64,000 bases of DNA from Candidatus Omnitrophota bacterium (GCA_028693815.1 JAQUUP010000001.1:72433-136432), one strand, 5' to 3'; positions 16,172-22,979 are shown, counted from the stretch's first letter. Program-made: numbers and translations. Notes: a model not told the origin generated them from the sequence alone.

Positions 16172-16566
16172 TTATTATCCTTAATCATACAAACTACGTT
16201 AAGGGAAACATTTTACCATTTTTCTAATATATAGACAACTATTAATATTATAGAGATTTATTTATAAAAAGGCGGGCACATGTAAAATAAAACAATATTA
16301 CTATTTAAGAAATTCTTTCAAATATCCTACAAACCTATTGATTCCAGACACTTAAACCTGTAAGCAAGATTCTGCTAAAATATTCTAAACAAAAAAATCC
16401 CCGCTTATGCCGTTAGGATAGGTAACATGAACCGTATGTGTCAAGTGGGTGCCTCTTTAAACCATCCAAAGATGATTTAAAAGCTTAGCTCCCGTGTATA
16501 CTGTGTTGGTTCAGTATAACTTGACCCAACGCACACAGCAGGGAATGATTTATTATAACACAACTA

Positions 16567-18600
16567 TCAACGCTTGATAGCTTGCAAATCCGCAATAATT
16601 CTTTGGCAAATATTGCCATGAACCTCTTGAACCTCTTGCTCCGTAAGTGTCTTTTGAAAAGATTGATACGTAAGAGAAATCGTAACGCCACGGTGTCCTT
16701 TTTCAAGCTTTTCGCCCAAATACTGCTCTACAAAATCAACCTCTAAAAGCAATGGCTCGTTGTCCCTTAAAATGACATCTTTTATTTTTTGATAACTAAT
16801 ATTTTCTTGAAGACTCAAACTAATGTCGCGCACCACACAAGGATATTCGCAAACAGCTTTATATTTCTCAATTTTTTGAGACGCTTTAAAAATAGAACTT
16901 GTTTCAATTTGTGCAAAAAAAACATCTTGATATTTAATATCCCATCTATTTAAAACGCCTTCATCAATCTTCCCCAAAAATCCAATTTTCTTACCCTTAA
17001 AAACAACCTCTGCGCTCTGTCCTTTTTGACAATAACAAATCTCTGCTTTTTCAAAACAACCCTCTTCTTTTAAAAAATAACCTAGCACATTTTCAACAGT
17101 ACCTTTAATGTCATAAAAATCTATTTTTTCTTTTTTTAAACTGCGCCAATCTTTGCTCCTATCTCCGGTCATTACAATTGACAAAATATCTTTCTCGCCA
17201 GACGCTGGATAAATTTTCCCAAGCTCAAATAACTTTAAATTTTTCTGACCTCTTTTTATGTTTAGAGAAACAATATTTAGAATGCTTGGCAAAGAATCTG
17301 TTCTCATAAAAACCTGATCCTCGGTCAAAGGATTTTGATTTTGAATGATTTCTTTATCAAAAGAAATATTTGCATTCTCAATCGTTTTTTCTCCCACCAT
17401 GGTATAGCTAATAATTTCGTCTAATCCTTGCCCTGTTAATGCCTGTGACAAATCTTTTTTAAAAATCCATTTTTGAGAGCCAACAATATTTTGTGCTTTA
17501 ATTTCTGGCATCTTTAGAGGAAGATTGTCAAAGCCAACAACACGCGCGATTTCTTCAATCACGTCAACGTCTTTTGTAATGTCACTTCGAAATGATGGAG
17601 GAGCAACCTCTAAACAATTTTTCTTTTTCTCAGAAACCGAACACTCAAGTTTCTTTAAAATATTCTTAATTCTTGTCGTCGGAAGATTTGCCCCTAAAAG
17701 AGAATTGATTTGATCTGTCGTCACATCAATCTTTTTCTGAATCTTTTTTGACTTGCCAGGATAAACATCTTTTTGAGAAAACGCAACACCACCTGCCAAA
17801 TCTTGAATCAAATTAACTGCTCTTTTAATCCCCGCCTCAACAACATTAACATCAACCCCTCTTTCAAAGCGATAAGAAGAATCGCTTCGAAGCGCGAGAT
17901 TGCGCGATGCGCGCCGAATCAAAATAGGATCAAAATAAGCACTTTCCAACAAAATATTTTTTGTTTCTTTTGTTACCTCGGCTTCTTTGCCTCCCATAAT
18001 ACCTGCGATCGCAACTGGCTTTTTCTCATCTGCGATAACCAAAATAGATGGATCAAGATCATACACAACGTCATCAATCGCTATAATTTTTTCACCTTTT
18101 TTAGCGCGACGCACAACAACTTTGTTGCCTTTTAATTTATCATAATCAAAGGCGTGCATAGGCTGACCGGTTTCCATCAAGCAAAAATTAGTCACGTCAA
18201 CAATATTATTAATAGGGCGAAGACCAATGGTCTTTAAATTTTTTTGCATCCCAAGTGGAGATTGTGCGATTTTGACACCTGTCAAAATCGCACCAATATA
18301 CCGACTACAGTCTTTTTTATCTTCAATTGTGATGTCACATTTATTGTTTAAAAATTTTATTTTTTTTATTTTTGGCTTTTTTAAATTCTTATTTAAAATG
18401 GCAGAAAACTCTCGTGCCAAACCAATAAAGCTAAGACAATCTGGCCGATTCGGAGTCACCTCAAGCTCAAAAACGGTGTCGCCGTTAATCTTTTCGATTT
18501 TCTCGACTTCTTGTCCAGATAAAGTTAGCTTATGCGCAAGCTCATCAACTTTATTTGGAATATCAATATAATCTTTAATCCAATTTAAATTTATTTTCAT
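16567..18600 (-). CDS. pheT: Phenylalanyl-tRNA synthetase beta subunit (short form, 677 aa)
   Basis: N-terminal MKINLNWIKDYIDIP B1 block, B3/4 and B5 regions, C-terminal anticodon-binding fold. Confidence 0.9.
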   Translation of the reverse strand: MKINLNWIKDYIDIPNKVDELAHKLTLSGQEVEKIEKINGDTVFELEVTPNRPDCLSFIGLAREFSAILNKNLKKPKIKKIKFLNNKCDITIEDKKDCSRYIGAILTGVKIAQSPLGMQKNLKTIGLRPINNIVDVTNFCLMETGQPMHAFDYDKLKGNKVVVRRAKKGEKIIAIDDVVYDLDPSILVIADEKKPVAIAGIMGGKEAEVTKETKNILLESAYFDPILIRRASRNLALRSDSSYRFERGVDVNVVEAGIKRAVNLIQDLAGGVAFSQKDVYPGKSKKIQKKIDVTTDQINSLLGANLPTTRIKNILKKLECSVSEKKKNCLEVAPPSFRSDITKDVDVIEEIARVVGFDNLPLKMPEIKAQNIVGSQKWIFKKDLSQALTGQGLDEIISYTMVGEKTIENANISFDKEIIQNQNPLTEDQVFMRTDSLPSILNIVSLNIKRGQKNLKLFELGKIYPASGEKDILSIVMTGDRSKDWRSLKKEKIDFYDIKGTVENVLGYFLKEEGCFEKAEICYCQKGQSAEVVFKGKKIGFLGKIDEGVLNRWDIKYQDVFFAQIETSSIFKASQKIEKYKAVCEYPCVVRDISLSLQENISYQKIKDVILRDNEPLLLEVDFVEQYLGEKLEKGHRGVTISLTYQSFQKTLTEQEVQEVHGNICQRIIADLQAIKR

Positions 18601-18679: not shown

Positions 18680-20146
18680 TCATTCAATTGGAGATGGGGA
18701 AGGAGAACACACTTCATTCCAATCTCCATGGACAAGATACCATTTCCAATTTGCTCCATTGTCATCAGTAGAGCATAAGCGTAAAGTAGATGTCTGAACA
18801 GTCCCCGTTGCACATACAACTTTTTCAATTGGCGTGAATTTCAACATCCCAGCTGTCTTATCTGAACACGCCGTCCCTTCAGTACCAACTTTAATAGCAC
18901 CATTAACATCCAACTTGGCCTGAGGTACAGTTATCCCAATCCCAAGACGTCCACCGTTTGGCCACCCCTGATCATCAATAACCATAAAATTACTATCAGT
19001 TTGTCCCGCTCCGTTTCTATATCGAGCAAAGGTTAAATTTCCCTGATTACTAAAAATATTATATCGATCGTTTGTTCCTCCGCTAACAAAACTAAGCCCT
19101 GAAGAGCTATTGGCAGCCTCAGATTTAATCCAAACCCCCTCTGCACTCCCCTGAGCATTAACGTGAAGATGAGCTTGAGGAGCAGTTTTTCCTATCCCAA
19201 CATCCCCAGCAAAATAATTATCCCCGCCGCCTGTTTGATAAATTCCATACGCCGTATCAGCAGAAGTTTCCATATAAATTCCTGACTTTGTCGTAACACT
19301 CCTTGGAACGGCATCATTAAAAATCTCAATAACAGGACCATCTGGCGCAGCAGCGGTATTCTCAAAAACAGCAGAATAATTAAAATCTGTATTTTGAACA
19401 TGAAGGTCAGCAAAAGGAGTTTCTGTTCCGATACCAGTTCTTCCATTTTTTAAAACAGTGACTGCATTAGACCGATTCGCAGCACTTGCTCCGTTCCCAA
19501 TCACAAACAAAGGGTCAGTGTCAACCCAGGCATTTGTCGTCCCAGAAACAATATTATATTGTCCAAAAACAGCAGAATTTTTAGCCCTAGCATTAGCAAA
19601 TTGCCCACTAGCAAAAGAATAGTCTCCGCTAGCAAAACTTGCTTGACCAAAAACAGAAGCTCTCTTCCCAGAAGCAACATTCGCATTTCCTGCTGCAAAA
19701 GAATAACTACCACTCACCGAATTGCTTCCACCAAAAGCAGAAGCATTGTCTCCTGCAACATTATTTTGAAACCCTGATGCAAAAGATCTTGTCCCGCTTA
19801 CTGTATTTTCTGAACCAAAAGCCGTTGAATAGTTCCCCGTAGCATTGTTCGATTCTCCTGATGTAAAAGAATTGTTTCCTGTCGTAGTATTATTTAAACC
19901 AAAAGCAACAGAGGCGTTTGTTGCTGTGTTTCCTGACCCAGCAACAAGTGCACCTTGTCCAGCATCGGGAACAATCTCAACTTTATGGATAGGGTTTTCC
20001 TCCCCTACACCTAGCTGTCCCATAACCCTCATCTCTTGATACATGCCAAAAGGGGCTGGATAATACGTTGTCAAAGTAACTTTATCTGCAAAAGCTAATG
20101 AACAACAAGCAACAACAAATAATATGGTAAAAATTATTTTTTTCAT
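18680..20146 (-). CDS. Secreted surface repeat protein, paralog B. Signal peptide, conserved N-terminal module, YadA-head-like 14-residue beta-roll repeats, three GIG..P..L(D/H)V tail-fibre-like motifs, Cys-containing C-terminal domain. Start set at MKKIIF with a GGGGAAG RBS.
   Basis: The first 60 aa after the start are near-identical to the neighbouring paralog (DKVTLTTYYPAPFGMYQEMRVMG). Repeats of the form SFAxGxxNxASGxxS. Motifs GRTGIGTETPFADLHV, GDVGIGKTAPQAHLHV and GRLGIGITVPQAKLDV. Confidence 0.6.
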   Translation of the reverse strand: MKKIIFTILFVVACCSLAFADKVTLTTYYPAPFGMYQEMRVMGQLGVGEENPIHKVEIVPDAGQGALVAGSGNTATNASVAFGLNNTTTGNNSFTSGESNNATGNYSTAFGSENTVSGTRSFASGFQNNVAGDNASAFGGSNSVSGSYSFAAGNANVASGKRASVFGQASFASGDYSFASGQFANARAKNSAVFGQYNIVSGTTNAWVDTDPLFVIGNGASAANRSNAVTVLKNGRTGIGTETPFADLHVQNTDFNYSAVFENTAAAPDGPVIEIFNDAVPRSVTTKSGIYMETSADTAYGIYQTGGGDNYFAGDVGIGKTAPQAHLHVNAQGSAEGVWIKSEAANSSSGLSFVSGGTNDRYNIFSNQGNLTFARYRNGAGQTDSNFMVIDDQGWPNGGRLGIGITVPQAKLDVNGAIKVGTEGTACSDKTAGMLKFTPIEKVVCATGTVQTSTLRLCSTDDNGANWKWYLVHGDWNEVCSPSPSPIE

Positions 20147-20214
20147 TTCTTCCCCCAATACAATATTAAATAAAATAAATTCAAAAGCTAAAATCTAAAC
20201 TAATTTATTATCTT

Positions 20215-21675
20215 TTAATCAGTAAGATTAAGCCCATTTTCTATTCCTGATCCTCCGGGAGGAGAAGCAGCGCCAAGCTTAACCGCATGACAAGCCCCTT
20301 TCCATGTATATCCCGGCCCTCCTGGTATCAAAATCCCGTCTTTATCATATTCTTCTCCAGGATAACAAACCTCCAAAGCACAGCAATCATTACAGCTCCC
20401 AGCGGGCACGGCAGCAACGCGAACAGACCCTGCTCGAGTTGCATTACAGGCAACTAATTGAGCTGTACCAAACTGAGCATATCCATAGACATAAATATTA
20501 CGATTTTCATCAACATCATTACCACCAACAACAATATGGCCAGAACTAATTCTCCCATCTACCTGAAGAAGAGTTGCGCTACTCATCGAAATGCCTCCAA
20601 AATCAAGGCCAACATGAACAGGAAAACTCGGATCTTCCTTGCTTAACCCAATAAAATCACCACCCGTTACACCATCTTGCTTAACAAAAATACCTCGATC
20701 ATTGTCTCCTGAGCTAGAAATATTACCGTCCCCTAACGTGATTGTTCCGTCGCTAACATCAAGCCTAGATACAGGATTTGCAACACCAATCCCAACATCT
20801 CCATTTTTTAAAACAGCCACTGCATCAGATCGATTAGCGTCATTTGTTCCGTTTCCAATAACAAACAAGGGGTCTAAATTTTTCCAAAGATGCTCCGTTC
20901 CCCTAACCAGATTAAATCTTCCAAAAACCGAAGAACCCAAAGCTTTTGCCGTCACGTTTATCCCAGCAGCAAAAGTATTTCTTCCAATAGCATTATTCTG
21001 CTCTCCAAAAGCAAAGCTTTTTTCGTTGCTTACAATGTTCCCCTCTCCAAAGGCAGCGGACTGCTCACTTGAAACAGCATTCTTAAATCCAAAAGCAAAA
21101 GATCTTGTGTTAGAAACCGTATTGCTTTCCCCTGTTGCAAAAGAATTGTCTCCCGAAACAGCGTTGTCAGATCCTGCGGCAAAAGAACTAATTCCATCTA
21201 CATCATTTTTTGAACCAAACGCAGATGAATTTTCACCAGAAACAACATTTTCGTCTCCCGAAGCAAAAGATGTTTCTCCAGAAGCCGTATTTGAAAACCC
21301 AGAAGCAAAAGCTCTAAGCCCAGAAACAGTATTGCCAGATCCTGTTGAAAAAGAACTAGCTCCAGTAGAGCTATTCATATCTCCTGTTGCAAAAGAAGTT
21401 GATCCGCTCGCTGTGTTTCCTGAACCAAGAGCAGAGGACATATTTGACGCTGTGTTTCCTATTCCAGCAACAAGGACACCTTGACCTGCCCCATCAGCAA
21501 TAATCTCCACTTTATGAGTAGGGTTTTCCTCTCCAACGCCGAGCAAGCCCATAACCCGCATCTCTTGATACATGCCAAAAGGGGCTGGATAATACGTTGT
21601 CAGCGTAACTTTATCTGCGAAAACTAACGAACAACAAGCAATAAGAAATAATATTGTAAAAATTACTTTTTTCAT
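20215..21675 (-). CDS. Secreted surface repeat protein, paralog A. Same N-terminal module and beta-roll repeats, with a distinct Cys-rich C-terminus.
   Basis: MKKVIFTILFLIACCSLVFADKVTLTTYYPAPFGMYQEMRV... followed by Ser/Gly/Asn-rich repeats SFAAGSDNAVSGDNSFATGESNTVS and DPLFVIGNGTNDANRSDAVAVLKNGDVGIGVANP. RBS GGAGG. Confidence 0.6.
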   Translation of the reverse strand: MKKVIFTILFLIACCSLVFADKVTLTTYYPAPFGMYQEMRVMGLLGVGEENPTHKVEIIADGAGQGVLVAGIGNTASNMSSALGSGNTASGSTSFATGDMNSSTGASSFSTGSGNTVSGLRAFASGFSNTASGETSFASGDENVVSGENSSAFGSKNDVDGISSFAAGSDNAVSGDNSFATGESNTVSNTRSFAFGFKNAVSSEQSAAFGEGNIVSNEKSFAFGEQNNAIGRNTFAAGINVTAKALGSSVFGRFNLVRGTEHLWKNLDPLFVIGNGTNDANRSDAVAVLKNGDVGIGVANPVSRLDVSDGTITLGDGNISSSGDNDRGIFVKQDGVTGGDFIGLSKEDPSFPVHVGLDFGGISMSSATLLQVDGRISSGHIVVGGNDVDENRNIYVYGYAQFGTAQLVACNATRAGSVRVAAVPAGSCNDCCALEVCYPGEEYDKDGILIPGGPGYTWKGACHAVKLGAASPPGGSGIENGLNLTD

Positions 21676-21757
21676 CTTTTTCCTCCTAAATTTAGCCAGG
21701 GCCTACTCTTCGTAACAACAAAATACAAAGCTCTGTCTAGGTTAAGATTAGTCCCAA

Positions 21758-21907
21758 CACGTTAAACGTGCGAGATAACTTTCAAAAATCAAATATTCAA
21801 TATCCCAGCATTCTACACATGCGGGATAACATTCAAAATCAAATGCTCAATATCCCGAAAACGCTTAGGCGTTTTCGGGACTGCCTCGCTTTTGCTCGGC
21901 TGGTCCC
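21758..21907 (+). repeat. Mosaic hairpin-linker repeat array: 3 GC-rich perfect hairpins separated by 2 copies of a 26-27 nt conserved linker (TAAC[A/T]TTCAAAA[A]TCAAAT..TCAATA).
   Basis: Hairpins are cacgt-taa-acgtg, tccc-agcattctacacatgc-ggga and tcccgaaaacgc-ttag-gcgttttcggga. The linker is repeated at 21776 and 21827. The same grammar is seen at 29.2 kb, 44.1 kb and 60.3 kb. Confidence 0.6.
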
Positions 21908-21935
21908 TTATGTTCTAAAAACCGAGCTTTTGCGT

Positions 21936-22979
21936 CTAGAATTGTTTAAGAAATCTTACATCATTCTCAAAAAACAAACGAATATCATTAATGCCGTACT
22001 TTAGCATGGCAATGCGCTCAACGCCCATTCCAAATGCAAGGCCTGTGTATTTATTTTTTGGATATTTGACCGCTTCAAAAACTTTTGGGTGAACCATGCC
22101 GCAACCCAATATTTCAAGCCATCCTTTTCGTCCACAAACCGAACATCCTTTTCCTTTACAAATATAACACGAAATATCGACCTCTGCCGAGGGCTCGGTA
22201 AACGGAAAGAAATGTGGACGAAATCGCATTTTAATATCTTTTCCAAACAATTTCTGACAAAAAACTGTAAGCAATCCCTTCAACTCGGAAAGAGTCACTT
22301 TTTCATCAACTAGCAATCCTTCAATCTGATGAAACATAAATGAATGACTCGCATCCACCGCATCAGGTCGATATACCTTGCCAGGAACAATCACAGCTAA
22401 AGGAGGTTTATTATTTTGCATCGCACGAATTTGTGCAGGAGAAGTGTGACTGCGGAGCAAAAGATTACGTTCTTTGTTACTCGGGTCTTTCGCATCCAAA
22501 TAAAAAGTATCAAACGCATCGCGAGAAGGATGGTCTGCCGGAATATTAAGCGCTGTAAAATTGTTAAACTCTGTTTCGATTTCTGGACCTTCAAAAACAG
22601 AAAATCCTAATTTCTCAAAAATTGCACAAATTTCATACATTGTTTGAGATAAAATATGCGCATGCCCCAAAGGCACTTTAACTCCTGGCATAGTCACATC
22701 GATACTATCTTGAGCTTTTTTTTCTTCATGCTCAGACTGAAAAAGTTTCTTTTTCTCATCAATAATAGACTGTATTTTATTCCTTAGGTCATTGGCCTTT
22801 TTGCCAATCAAAGGTTTTTCTTCTTTTGAGGCGGCCCCAAGACTTGCGTAAATTTCAGCAACAAACCCTTTTCGCCCTAAATATTTGATACGAAAGGCTT
22901 CTAGCTGATCTGCGCCACTTATCTGAGAAGCTTCTTGAGATAAATTTGTATTAATTTCTTCGAAATTCCAAGATGTCAT
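21936..22979 (-). CDS. pheS: Phenylalanyl-tRNA synthetase alpha subunit
   Basis: Class II motifs FRPHFFPFTEPS and GLAFGMGVERIAM. Confidence 0.9.
   Translation of the reverse strand: MTSWNFEEINTNLSQEASQISGADQLEAFRIKYLGRKGFVAEIYASLGAASKEEKPLIGKKANDLRNKIQSIIDEKKKLFQSEHEEKKAQDSIDVTMPGVKVPLGHAHILSQTMYEICAIFEKLGFSVFEGPEIETEFNNFTALNIPADHPSRDAFDTFYLDAKDPSNKERNLLLRSHTSPAQIRAMQNNKPPLAVIVPGKVYRPDAVDASHSFMFHQIEGLLVDEKVTLSELKGLLTVFCQKLFGKDIKMRFRPHFFPFTEPSAEVDISCYICKGKGCSVCGRKGWLEILGCGMVHPKVFEAVKYPKNKYTGLAFGMGVERIAMLKYGINDIRLFFENDVRFLKQF

Follow-up and report, generated by a model that had tools for sequence, protein, structure and literature searches.

Sec-exported, fibre-like proteins sharing a conserved N-terminal module and encoded between pheS and pheT in a clade of Omnitrophota

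A 64,000-nucleotide stretch of DNA from a Candidatus Omnitrophota bacterium (GCA_028693815.1 JAQUUP010000001.1:72433-136432), which we refer to as the window, carries two genes, here named A and B, between pheS and pheT, the genes for the alpha and beta subunits of phenylalanyl-tRNA synthetase (PheRS). Our analyses indicate that A and B encode Sec-exported modular fibres in which a conserved N-terminal module is combined with variable tips and which, by analogy with characterised fibre systems, probably form homotrimers at the cell surface, most likely for attachment. A preliminary description of this DNA had proposed that two paralogous genes for secreted repeat proteins split pheS from pheT, and every feature that it described is found in place: the open reading frame (ORF) table lists four co-oriented genes on the minus strand, pheS, A, B and pheT, with pheS and pheT 3.3 kb apart. 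New here are the invariant N-terminal module, with its signature TTYYPAPFGxY, and the clade-fixed placement of the genes within pheST, accompanied by gene-content turnover; in the literature we found no paper describing either the module or this placement.

Domain architecture of the two proteins

Proteins A and B are 50% identical across their first ~310 residues (BLASTP E 2e-89). Of the first 60 residues 52 are identical, bearing out the near-identical N-termini reported previously, and the C-termini are unrelated. The signal peptide of A (21616-21675; this and all window features below lie on the minus strand unless marked otherwise) reads MKKVIFTILFLIACCSLVFA followed by DK, with an n-region, an h-region and an AxA-like site recognisable in the sequence, and cleavage by signal peptidase I (SPase I) is predicted after VFA. 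We also considered lipoproteins, given the lipobox-like IAC-C of A and VAC-C of B, and rejected this reading: the Cys is missing in most homologues and an AxA-type site (FA followed by D or Q) is found in all, so the lack of conservation of the Cys-Cys pair points to SPase I cleavage rather than to a lipobox. The signal peptide is followed in A by the N-terminal family module (21496-21615; DKVTLTTYYPAPFGMYQEMRVMGLLGVGEENPTHKVEI), with 23 invariant columns in alignments A1 and A3, the second half of which is the first copy of a fibre motif, GxxGVGxxxPxxxVxI. The corresponding signal peptide and module of B (19967-20146) are 87% identical to those of A at the nucleotide level, with an identical core of 44 nt.

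Beyond the module, both proteins enter a left-handed beta-roll. In A this region (20746-21483) comprises a roll of about 13-14 turns of a 14-residue repeat, as seen in the AlphaFold2 (AF2) model, together with the cap LFVIGNG..RSDAVAVLKNG that comes after the roll and the motif GDVGIGVANPVSRLDV; the SxAxG positions of the repeat fall at residues 80, 94, 108 and 136 and then at each 14 residues up to 234, and are strictly periodic. The predicted local distance difference test (pLDDT) values of this model are 93-99 over residues 70-300, and its best Foldseek matches are the heads of trimeric autotransporter adhesins (TAAs), namely BpaC 7o23 (1.2e-6), UspA1, CbpF and BoaA. The roll of B (19433-19951; cap LFVIGNG..RSNAVTVLKNG) is shorter, with about 7-8 regular turns, is modelled with pLDDT above 90 over residues 80-150, and matches CbpF (2e-9), BpaC and Hep_Hag by sequence in the PDB. 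Taken together, the PDB sequence matches of A and B are to the head domains of CbpF, BpaC, BoaA/Hep_Hag and UspA1, and in Pfam the two proteins score 31.3 and 29.5 bits against YadA_head (cut-off 25) and 35.5 and 42 bits against LbR_Ice_bind (cut-off 30). The 14-residue repeat that had been likened to YadA heads is thus YadA-head-like at the level of the fold, because the modelled roll of A resembles autotransporter heads in the Foldseek search; the repeat is a real left-handed beta-roll in both sequence and fold. In both models, helix is confined to the signal peptide and to one 3-residue turn in each C-terminal region.

After the roll, B continues into a shaft (18905-19444) of beta-sandwich-like segments separated by GxxGIGxxxPxxxLxV motifs, as revealed by motif scanning, Foldseek and phmmer. 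The motif occurs three times after the roll in B (19397-19444, 19160-19207 and 18905-18952) and once in A, and each of the two N-terminal modules contains a further, degenerate copy. The top four PDB matches of the B model in Foldseek are all to Bdellovibrio fibres of the mosaic adhesive trimer (MAT) class, namely Bd2133 (6.9e-5), Bd1334 (4.1e-4) and Bd3182 (6.4e-3), and A has a single MAT-like segment by the same method (8oml_A, 40 columns). In line with this, the sole phmmer match of the C-terminal half of B in the PDB is a MAT (8on4_A, E 0.0057), Bd2133 is the best of three weak matches of the C-terminal half of A (E 0.11), and the MAT sequence matches of both proteins pass through the GxVGIG..P...L.V motif. 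The B model also matches 60 predicted viral structures in BFVD at E <= 1e-3, phage tail fibres and Peptidase_S74 proteins among them, and direct sequence links to phages are weak, consisting of a PHROG tail-fibre match and a tblastn match on a Flavobacterium phage tail spike. The association of the GIG motifs with tail-fibre-like domains therefore holds, since the post-roll region resembles both phage tail fibres and Bdellovibrio MAT fibres.

Each protein ends in a small Cys-containing tip, and the two tips are unrelated to each other, as the preliminary description had noticed for the C-termini. The tip of A, which we call type A (20218-20463; ..VACNATRAGSVRV..C..CCALEVCYPG..WKGAC..), is modelled with a pLDDT of about 78 and is followed by a Pro/Gly tail with the end -LTD. 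The type-B tip of B (18683-18904; G..ACSDKTAGMLKFTP..C......STLRLCS....W.W..V.G.W..C), recognised by comparison of shared tips, is followed by a tail with the end -PIE. Peptidase_S74, a candidate C-terminal domain that we looked for with Pfam, was not found in A or B, although other members of the family described below do end in it. Neither protein gave a match to YadA_anchor (PF03895), HIM/neck (PF05662) or a stalk domain in Pfam at E <= 1.

A C-terminal Pro/Gly stretch closed by a hydrophobic-acidic dipeptide is also seen in many other family members that lack Peptidase_S74 (-PIE, -LTD, -LPD, -SIE, -PID, -LID, -FID, -PED and -TVE; alignment A4); in the window these tails occupy 18683-18720 in B and 20218-20260 in A, and could represent a C-terminal sorting or processing tag. 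A link to PheRS through Phe content was considered as well and dismissed, the proteins containing 5.5% Phe with no strong signal.

An Omnitrophota family sharing the N-terminal module

We scanned one genome per GTDB species using TTYYPAPF and GMYQEMRV as queries, and recovered 76 loci, nearly all from Omnitrophota metagenome-assembled genomes (MAGs), including Ca. Aceula, Susulua and Aadella, with several loci carrying placeholder 'Planctomycetales' labels and three in odd bins. In all, 92 family genes were counted at these loci, frequently in tandem, and their products range from 107 to >800 residues. The module follows the consensus xTLTTYYPAPFGMYQEMRVMGxLGVG..., and a longer variant (TTYYPAPFGAYDRLRLVPR..C..GTLY..C) also exists within the family. 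TTYYPAPFG is invariant in 85 genes, in which all synonymous codons are in use; an invariant peptide encoded by varying codons indicates that selection acts on the peptide and not on the DNA. The closest homologues of the window proteins share either the full architecture or just the first ~60 residues.

A profile of the module cannot be used to count the family, since a HMMER search with it is swamped by a generic GxLGVGTTxPxxxLxV repeat: 26,309 representative proteins are retrieved at E <= 1e-3, profile positions 40-70 match this widespread repeat, and the top matches are giant proteins carrying 12-52 copies of it. As judged by sequence, the second half of the module is the first copy of this generic fibre repeat. 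Thousands of giant metagenomic proteins (1.3-7.7 thousand residues; P0121-P0264) carry the repeat, each in 12-52 copies.

What follows the module is a mosaic. YadA-type rolls are present in some members and absent from many; Peptidase_S74 ends (E 1e-17 to 1e-18) are found at loci L069, L032, L021, L058 and L028; one member has a Hint-domain end, some have dockerin inserts, and a further pheST-embedded member (L135) carries a tip that reads as tail-collar-like from its sequence, while short members of 107-200 residues have no obvious shaft. Among the family proteins retrieved, in which tips were compared by reading, type-A tips occur on different shafts in A of the window, P0011, P0012 and gene 2 of L001, and type-B tips occur on shafts with or without a beta-roll in B of the window, P0003 (gene 1 of L001), P0070, P0149 and L010. 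One Peptidase_S74-type member, named 'tail fiber domain-containing protein' by NCBI, has >3400 relatives in Bacteroidota, the candidate phyla radiation (CPR) and other phyla, most of them without the N-terminal module.

Family loci recur in housekeeping contexts. Outside the clade of the window, the genes lie divergently from pyrR-pyrB, beside rsmI-glmS, or after the gene for the CCA-adding enzyme, and at some loci Cys-rich secreted giants are neighbours. These Cys-rich repeat proteins of 600-1400 residues often follow family genes (L036:6884-10684 and L043:6767-8554, with the same position taken in L041, L055, L062, L077, L079 and L012), contain CCxYG.. and CGDGxC repeats together with helical N-terminal repeats, and have no match in Pfam. 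In a separate set of loci (L040, L044 and L066, and also L051), short members of 128-159 residues are part of a conserved cluster, c67-FAM-c36-c20-c37, which includes two small ORFs and an enzyme of the radical SAM/SPASM type as judged by sequence motif.

History and organisation of the pheS-pheT locus

The flanking PheRS genes of the window are both complete. The upstream pheS (21936-22979) matches Pfam tRNA-synt_2d (1.7e-100) and Phe_tRNA-synt_N, and its product shows 85% identity to PheS of L004 and 90% to the Ca. Aceula lacicola protein; the downstream pheT (16567-18600), with the B3_4, B5, tRNA_synthFbeta and FDX-ACB domains, begins 79 nt beyond gene B. Both fibre genes were assigned by ORF calling, Pfam and AF2. 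Gene A spans 20215-21675 and encodes 486 residues. Gene B had first been called as a TTG-started ORF of 492 residues (18680-20158), but its true start is likely the ATG at 20146, which gives the 488 residues of the deposited protein P0002; A and B match P0001 and P0002 exactly, both hypothetical proteins from a 190-kb contig of a 'Candidatus Omnitrophica bacterium' MAG. The N-terminal motif has just these two copies in the window, where the fibre genes have thrS, infC, rplT, trkAH, pheS, pheT, MTHFS and rny as neighbours, as they do at related loci, and the GC content of the insert is at most slightly above that of its flanks. Two further elements of the region are a 281-residue ORF antisense to gene A (20639-21484, plus strand), which is the Ser/Gly/Asn repeat read in reverse in a frame free of stops and gives no indication of being a gene, and a 6S RNA (Rfam RF00013, 70.2 bits, E 9e-13) directly downstream of pheT at 16394-16547.

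The site is occupied in the same way in relatives of the window. Two genes lie between pheS and pheT in L004 (PheS 85% and PheT 72% identical to those of the window) and in L001 (72% and 55%), and a single gene of 430 residues is present in Ca. Aceula meridiana (L010; 76% and 62%). The locus is split over two contigs in Ca. Aceula lacicola (L006 and L008; 90% and 77%) and in L007 and L039 (71% and 51%; at least one gene), and in L009, where the contig starts inside the locus and pheS lies off it, two family genes precede a pheT whose product is 61% identical. A neighbour-joining (NJ) tree of PheS places the window, L004, L006, L010, L007, L001 and L082 in one clade in which every site is occupied, and neighbouring lineages are empty. 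Several of the latter (L083, L089, L096 and L102) have the order trkA-trkH-pheS-pheT, and wherever the contig extends far enough beyond pheT (L083, L089 and L096) pheST continues into MTHFS-rny-ymdB, syntenic with an empty site. In a metagenome scan with PheS, the two genes are 2-196 nt apart at 60 of the 64 loci that hold both, with family genes between them at two loci and an unrelated small insert at the other two. Because the clade is wholly occupied while syntenic sister lineages are empty, this comparison of loci identifies the insertion as derived, old and stably inherited in the clade of the window. The possibility that pheST is split ancestrally in this way therefore holds in part: the split is shared by the whole clade, across PheT identities down to 55%, and is neither private nor recent, yet it is not the general ancestral state, since empty sites exist in sister lineages and in 60 of the 64 metagenomic relatives. 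Further occupied sites are scattered in deeper lineages (L091, L025/L059, L032 and L135) and reflect either repeated gain or repeated loss, the number of events being uncertain because the PheS tree carries no support values.

The content of the site is variable, with one or two genes of 148-541 residues, different tip types, and a tip order that is swapped between the window and L001. The suggestion that the locus is a hotspot of surface-protein variation is in this way supported indirectly, by gene number, length, tip type and order, scattered occupancy and contig breaks. As to the last, two MAG assemblies, L006/L008 from Ca. Aceula lacicola and L007/L039, are interrupted within the pheS-fibre-pheT locus, as is typical where sequence varies between strains or has paralogues. 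In another lineage the junction holds a different insert (L116:8690-9460, L130:9000-9450 and L159:2760-3370), made up of a nucleotidyltransferase-like ORF of ~180 residues and an ORF of 69-77 residues, so the pheS-pheT junction accepts other cargo too. In L004 (6217-6516 and 7901-8161; also L011), both fibre genes contain the same +1 frameshift at a G5 run (CTTGGGGGTAGGG) within the conserved GSLGVG codons, as a result of which gene callers start in the other frame and the proteins P0004 and P0005 begin 'MVCIKRCGLWEV'; this is either an assembly error or slipped-strand phase variation.

Comparison of paralogues within and between genomes reveals different histories for the two ends of the genes. 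The first 62 residues of paralogues are 82-98% identical within a genome and 56-76% identical between genomes, whereas the tips are 24-29% identical within a genome and 36-48% between genomes. N-termini that are more alike within genomes, with tips that are more alike between them, form the pattern that gene conversion leaves when it acts on the 5' end and the tips stay distinct. A recent conversion of the whole gene was rejected for the window pair, as A and B differ by 12 synonymous changes in their first 60 codons and the 44-nt core is the sole identical stretch.

The fibre genes are probably co-transcribed with pheST, as suggested by their shared strand and spacing; at other occupied loci the genes lie just 21-66 nt (L001) or 34-54 nt (L025) apart, a spacing that argues for an operon. 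In the window, pheS and gene A are separated by a structured leader of 260 nt (21676-21935), identified by RNA folding and motif comparison, in which three hairpins alternate with two ~26-nt linkers of the form GGGATATTGAGCATTTGATTTTGAA. The hairpins have a conserved outer stem (AUCCCG/CGGGAU) with a one-nucleotide 3' bulge and a variable inner stem with compensation. Their folding energies range from -9 to -21.5 kcal/mol, and the complete leader, folded as RNA, reaches a z-score of -4.3 relative to shuffled sequences. The hairpin-linker leader that had been described is thus borne out, and is also shared by the two closest genomes, with the correction that the 'array' amounts to two and a half units. 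At the same place L006 (Ca. Aceula lacicola) has two copies of the unit and L004 has one, of the linker only; with 0 matches expected by chance, the unit is found nowhere else in the window or in 1.57 Mb of retrieved loci, and more distant occupied loci have pheS-fibre gaps of 21-108 nt in which it is not present. This confinement to the pheS-fibre junction led us to reject a dispersed repeat. The leader matches no Rfam family, and scans of it for sigma-70 promoters and terminators found no site other than a 9/12 match to a promoter where gene A has its start codon (21675-21648), in a region with 20 such matches against 16.2 expected. It may be a young cis-element, particular to this locus, that adjusts how strongly the fibre genes are expressed relative to pheS, whether by processing, by stability or by partial termination.

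Probable attachment fibres and competing explanations

In the reading that we favour, the Sec signal peptide would be removed from each protein, leaving the ~40-residue N-terminal module as a cell-proximal end through which the fibre may dock to an envelope component, or join an assembly route, that is itself conserved. The shaft would be built from the YadA-head beta-roll with its FVIGNG..RSNA..VLKNG cap, followed by MAT- or tail-fibre-like segments that each open with GxVGIGxxxPxxxLxV, and a small disulfide-bonded tip domain, unrelated between A and B, would carry the binding specificity. If they resemble YadA heads, phage tail fibres and MATs in this respect, such fibres would most likely form homotrimers on the surface of the tiny Omnitrophota cell and hold it to a substrate, a partner or a prey cell. 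In the clade of the window, these fibres would be expressed from the thrS-infC-rplT-trkAH-pheS-fibre-pheT cluster, with the structured leader modulating the junction between pheS and the fibre genes, and gene conversion would homogenise the 5' modules within a genome while tips are retained or exchanged, giving rise to a small, changeable repertoire of adhesins.

Several observations weigh against this reading. The Foldseek matches between B and MAT fibres have probabilities of 0.99-1.0 but low TM-scores (0.11-0.22), as might well happen where a single modelled chain is set against chains taken from an intertwined trimer, and the sequence matches to MATs are marginal (E 0.006 and 0.11). AF2 confidence is low in the N-terminal module (about 50-55), in residues 315-405 of A and in residues 265-310 of B. 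Neither an outer-membrane anchor nor a secretion system nor a conserved partner gene turned up beside family members, and the 260-nt leader of the window could equally terminate or process the transcript that would join the fibre genes to pheS.

The YadA-like head naturally raises the question of whether A and B are classical trimeric autotransporters (type Vc, YadA/Hep_Hag) that carry their own C-terminal beta-barrel for export and anchoring. The same 14-residue SxAxG left-handed parallel beta-roll is found in the TAA heads BpaC (7o23), UspA1 (3pr7), CbpF (9u93), BoaA (3s6l) and AtaA (3wp8), which are the best solved relatives of the repeat region; YadA_head exceeds its Pfam cut-off, and there is a weak NCBIfam match to Ata. 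An autotransporter, however, would need the anchor, neck and stalk that are missing from the Pfam results, and their absence indicates that A and B are not TAAs. Instead, each protein ends in a small Cys-containing domain and a Pro/Gly tail, the tail-fibre-type segments between roll and tip match MAT and phage fibres, and it is the N-terminus that is conserved in this family, whereas in TAAs it is the C-terminus, so that the window proteins would be anchored, if at all, via their N-termini. We therefore regard this explanation as barely credible. It is likewise very improbable that A and B are tail-fibre genes of a prophage, tailocin or other mobile element that landed between pheS and pheT. 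Their predicted structures do resemble phage tail fibres and Peptidase_S74 proteins, the PHROG and Flavobacterium phage matches point the same way, and the Peptidase_S74 chaperone that such fibres and spikes use occurs in other family members; but both window proteins have Sec signal peptides and lack Peptidase_S74, their chromosomal neighbours are housekeeping genes, and no capsid, baseplate, integrase or other phage genes were found across about 80 family loci. Nor would such an element fit an arrangement that is stable across the clade down to 55% PheT identity, a GC content so close to that of the flanks, or an N-terminal module that is family-specific, chromosomal and phylum-wide.

That the proteins are secreted beta-rolls with no adhesive role, acting as ice-binding (antifreeze) proteins or as structural, S-layer-like coat subunits, seems to us unlikely, though this explanation has more to recommend it. 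LbR_Ice_bind is the strongest Pfam match (E 1e-8 to 1e-10), a ryegrass ice-binding protein is among the PDB matches, placement within essential operons (pheST, and near pyrR and glmS elsewhere) would fit constitutive structural proteins, and the short members without an obvious shaft could be accommodated. YadA heads and the grass ice-binding protein share a fold class, however, so that the LbR_Ice_bind match does not discriminate between these functions. Moreover, the beta-roll is optional in the family while the N-terminal module and variable tips are universal, and the mosaic tips, Peptidase_S74 ends, dockerin inserts and collar-like tips are features of recognition fibres; a coat or antifreeze protein would leave the variable tips unexplained. 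On this evidence attachment fibres remain, in our view, the probable explanation.

As far as known systems are concerned, A and B are probably a lineage-specific variant of MAT- or tail-fibre-like adhesins into which a YadA-type roll has been built. The MAT fibres of Bdellovibrio bacteriovorus have been shown experimentally to combine one conserved end, a trimeric shaft and swappable tips, in classes with and without S74, and one Omnitrophica protein has been counted among them (Caulton et al. 2024, PMC10769870). The family described here resembles them in its Sec signal, in having an N-terminal end that is conserved within the family, in its tail-fibre-like shaft with GxVGIGxxxPxxxLxV and interchangeable tips, in the coexistence of S74-terminated members and others such as A and B, in its many paralogues per genome and in its occurrence in organisms known or proposed to be predatory or host-dependent; among solved structures, MATs also match the post-roll region of B best. 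The differences are that, compared by description, the MAT N-terminal domain is beta-rich and of ~130 residues, against the ~40-residue TTYYPAPFGxY module, that MATs have 600-1900 residues, against about 490 in the window proteins, and that the window shafts are mostly YadA-head beta-roll and are encoded inside a pheST operon. The TAAs share the roll but have a neck, a coiled-coil stalk and a C-terminal beta-barrel in place of the segments and tips seen here. The 'tail fiber domain-containing proteins' of Bacteroidota, CPR and other phyla, which combine YadA_head with Peptidase_S74, have in common with A and B the YadA-head repeats, the FVIGNG..RSNA..VLKNG cap and GNVGIGTxxP, but mostly lack TTYYPAPFG, are larger and have S74 or C1q ends, neither of which is present in A or B. 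Phage tail fibres and spikes, in turn, are similar in shaft fold but are encoded together with virion genes, of which there are none near A and B.

Omnitrophota are abundant, uncultured and ultra-small bacteria thought to live attached to, or to prey on, other cells. To our knowledge, pili and giant ORFs are the only attachment factors proposed for them so far. The present work reveals no new molecular mechanism, but it defines a compact and nearly phylum-confined family that can be recognised by a signal peptide and TTYYPAPFGxY, and whose members are candidates for host or prey recognition, for tagging with antibodies or in the manner of fluorescence in situ hybridisation (FISH), and for predicting host range from tips. 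It also offers a case for comparison in which adhesin genes have become fixed within an essential operon for an aminoacyl-tRNA synthetase while sister sites are empty and the content turns over. Such a case should help in studies of how reduced genomes recruit and exchange surface-protein cassettes. A bolder idea, which we put forward tentatively and consider rather unlikely, is that TTYYPAPFGxY is an undescribed N-terminal signal for surface sorting or anchoring that is nearly restricted to Omnitrophota, with the Pro/Gly tail as a second tag, and that placement in essential operons ties display to growth-rate-controlled transcription. Sec-exported fibres of 107 to >800 residues may then be handed to a dedicated envelope receptor or export route, in a logic that may be comparable to that of lipoprotein export signals or of the tags of the type IX secretion system (T9SS) and sortases. 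As Omnitrophota have been proposed to be host-dependent or predatory nanobacteria, this would, if true, mean that the display of a host-attachment repertoire is coupled to growth rate in host-dependent nanobacteria.

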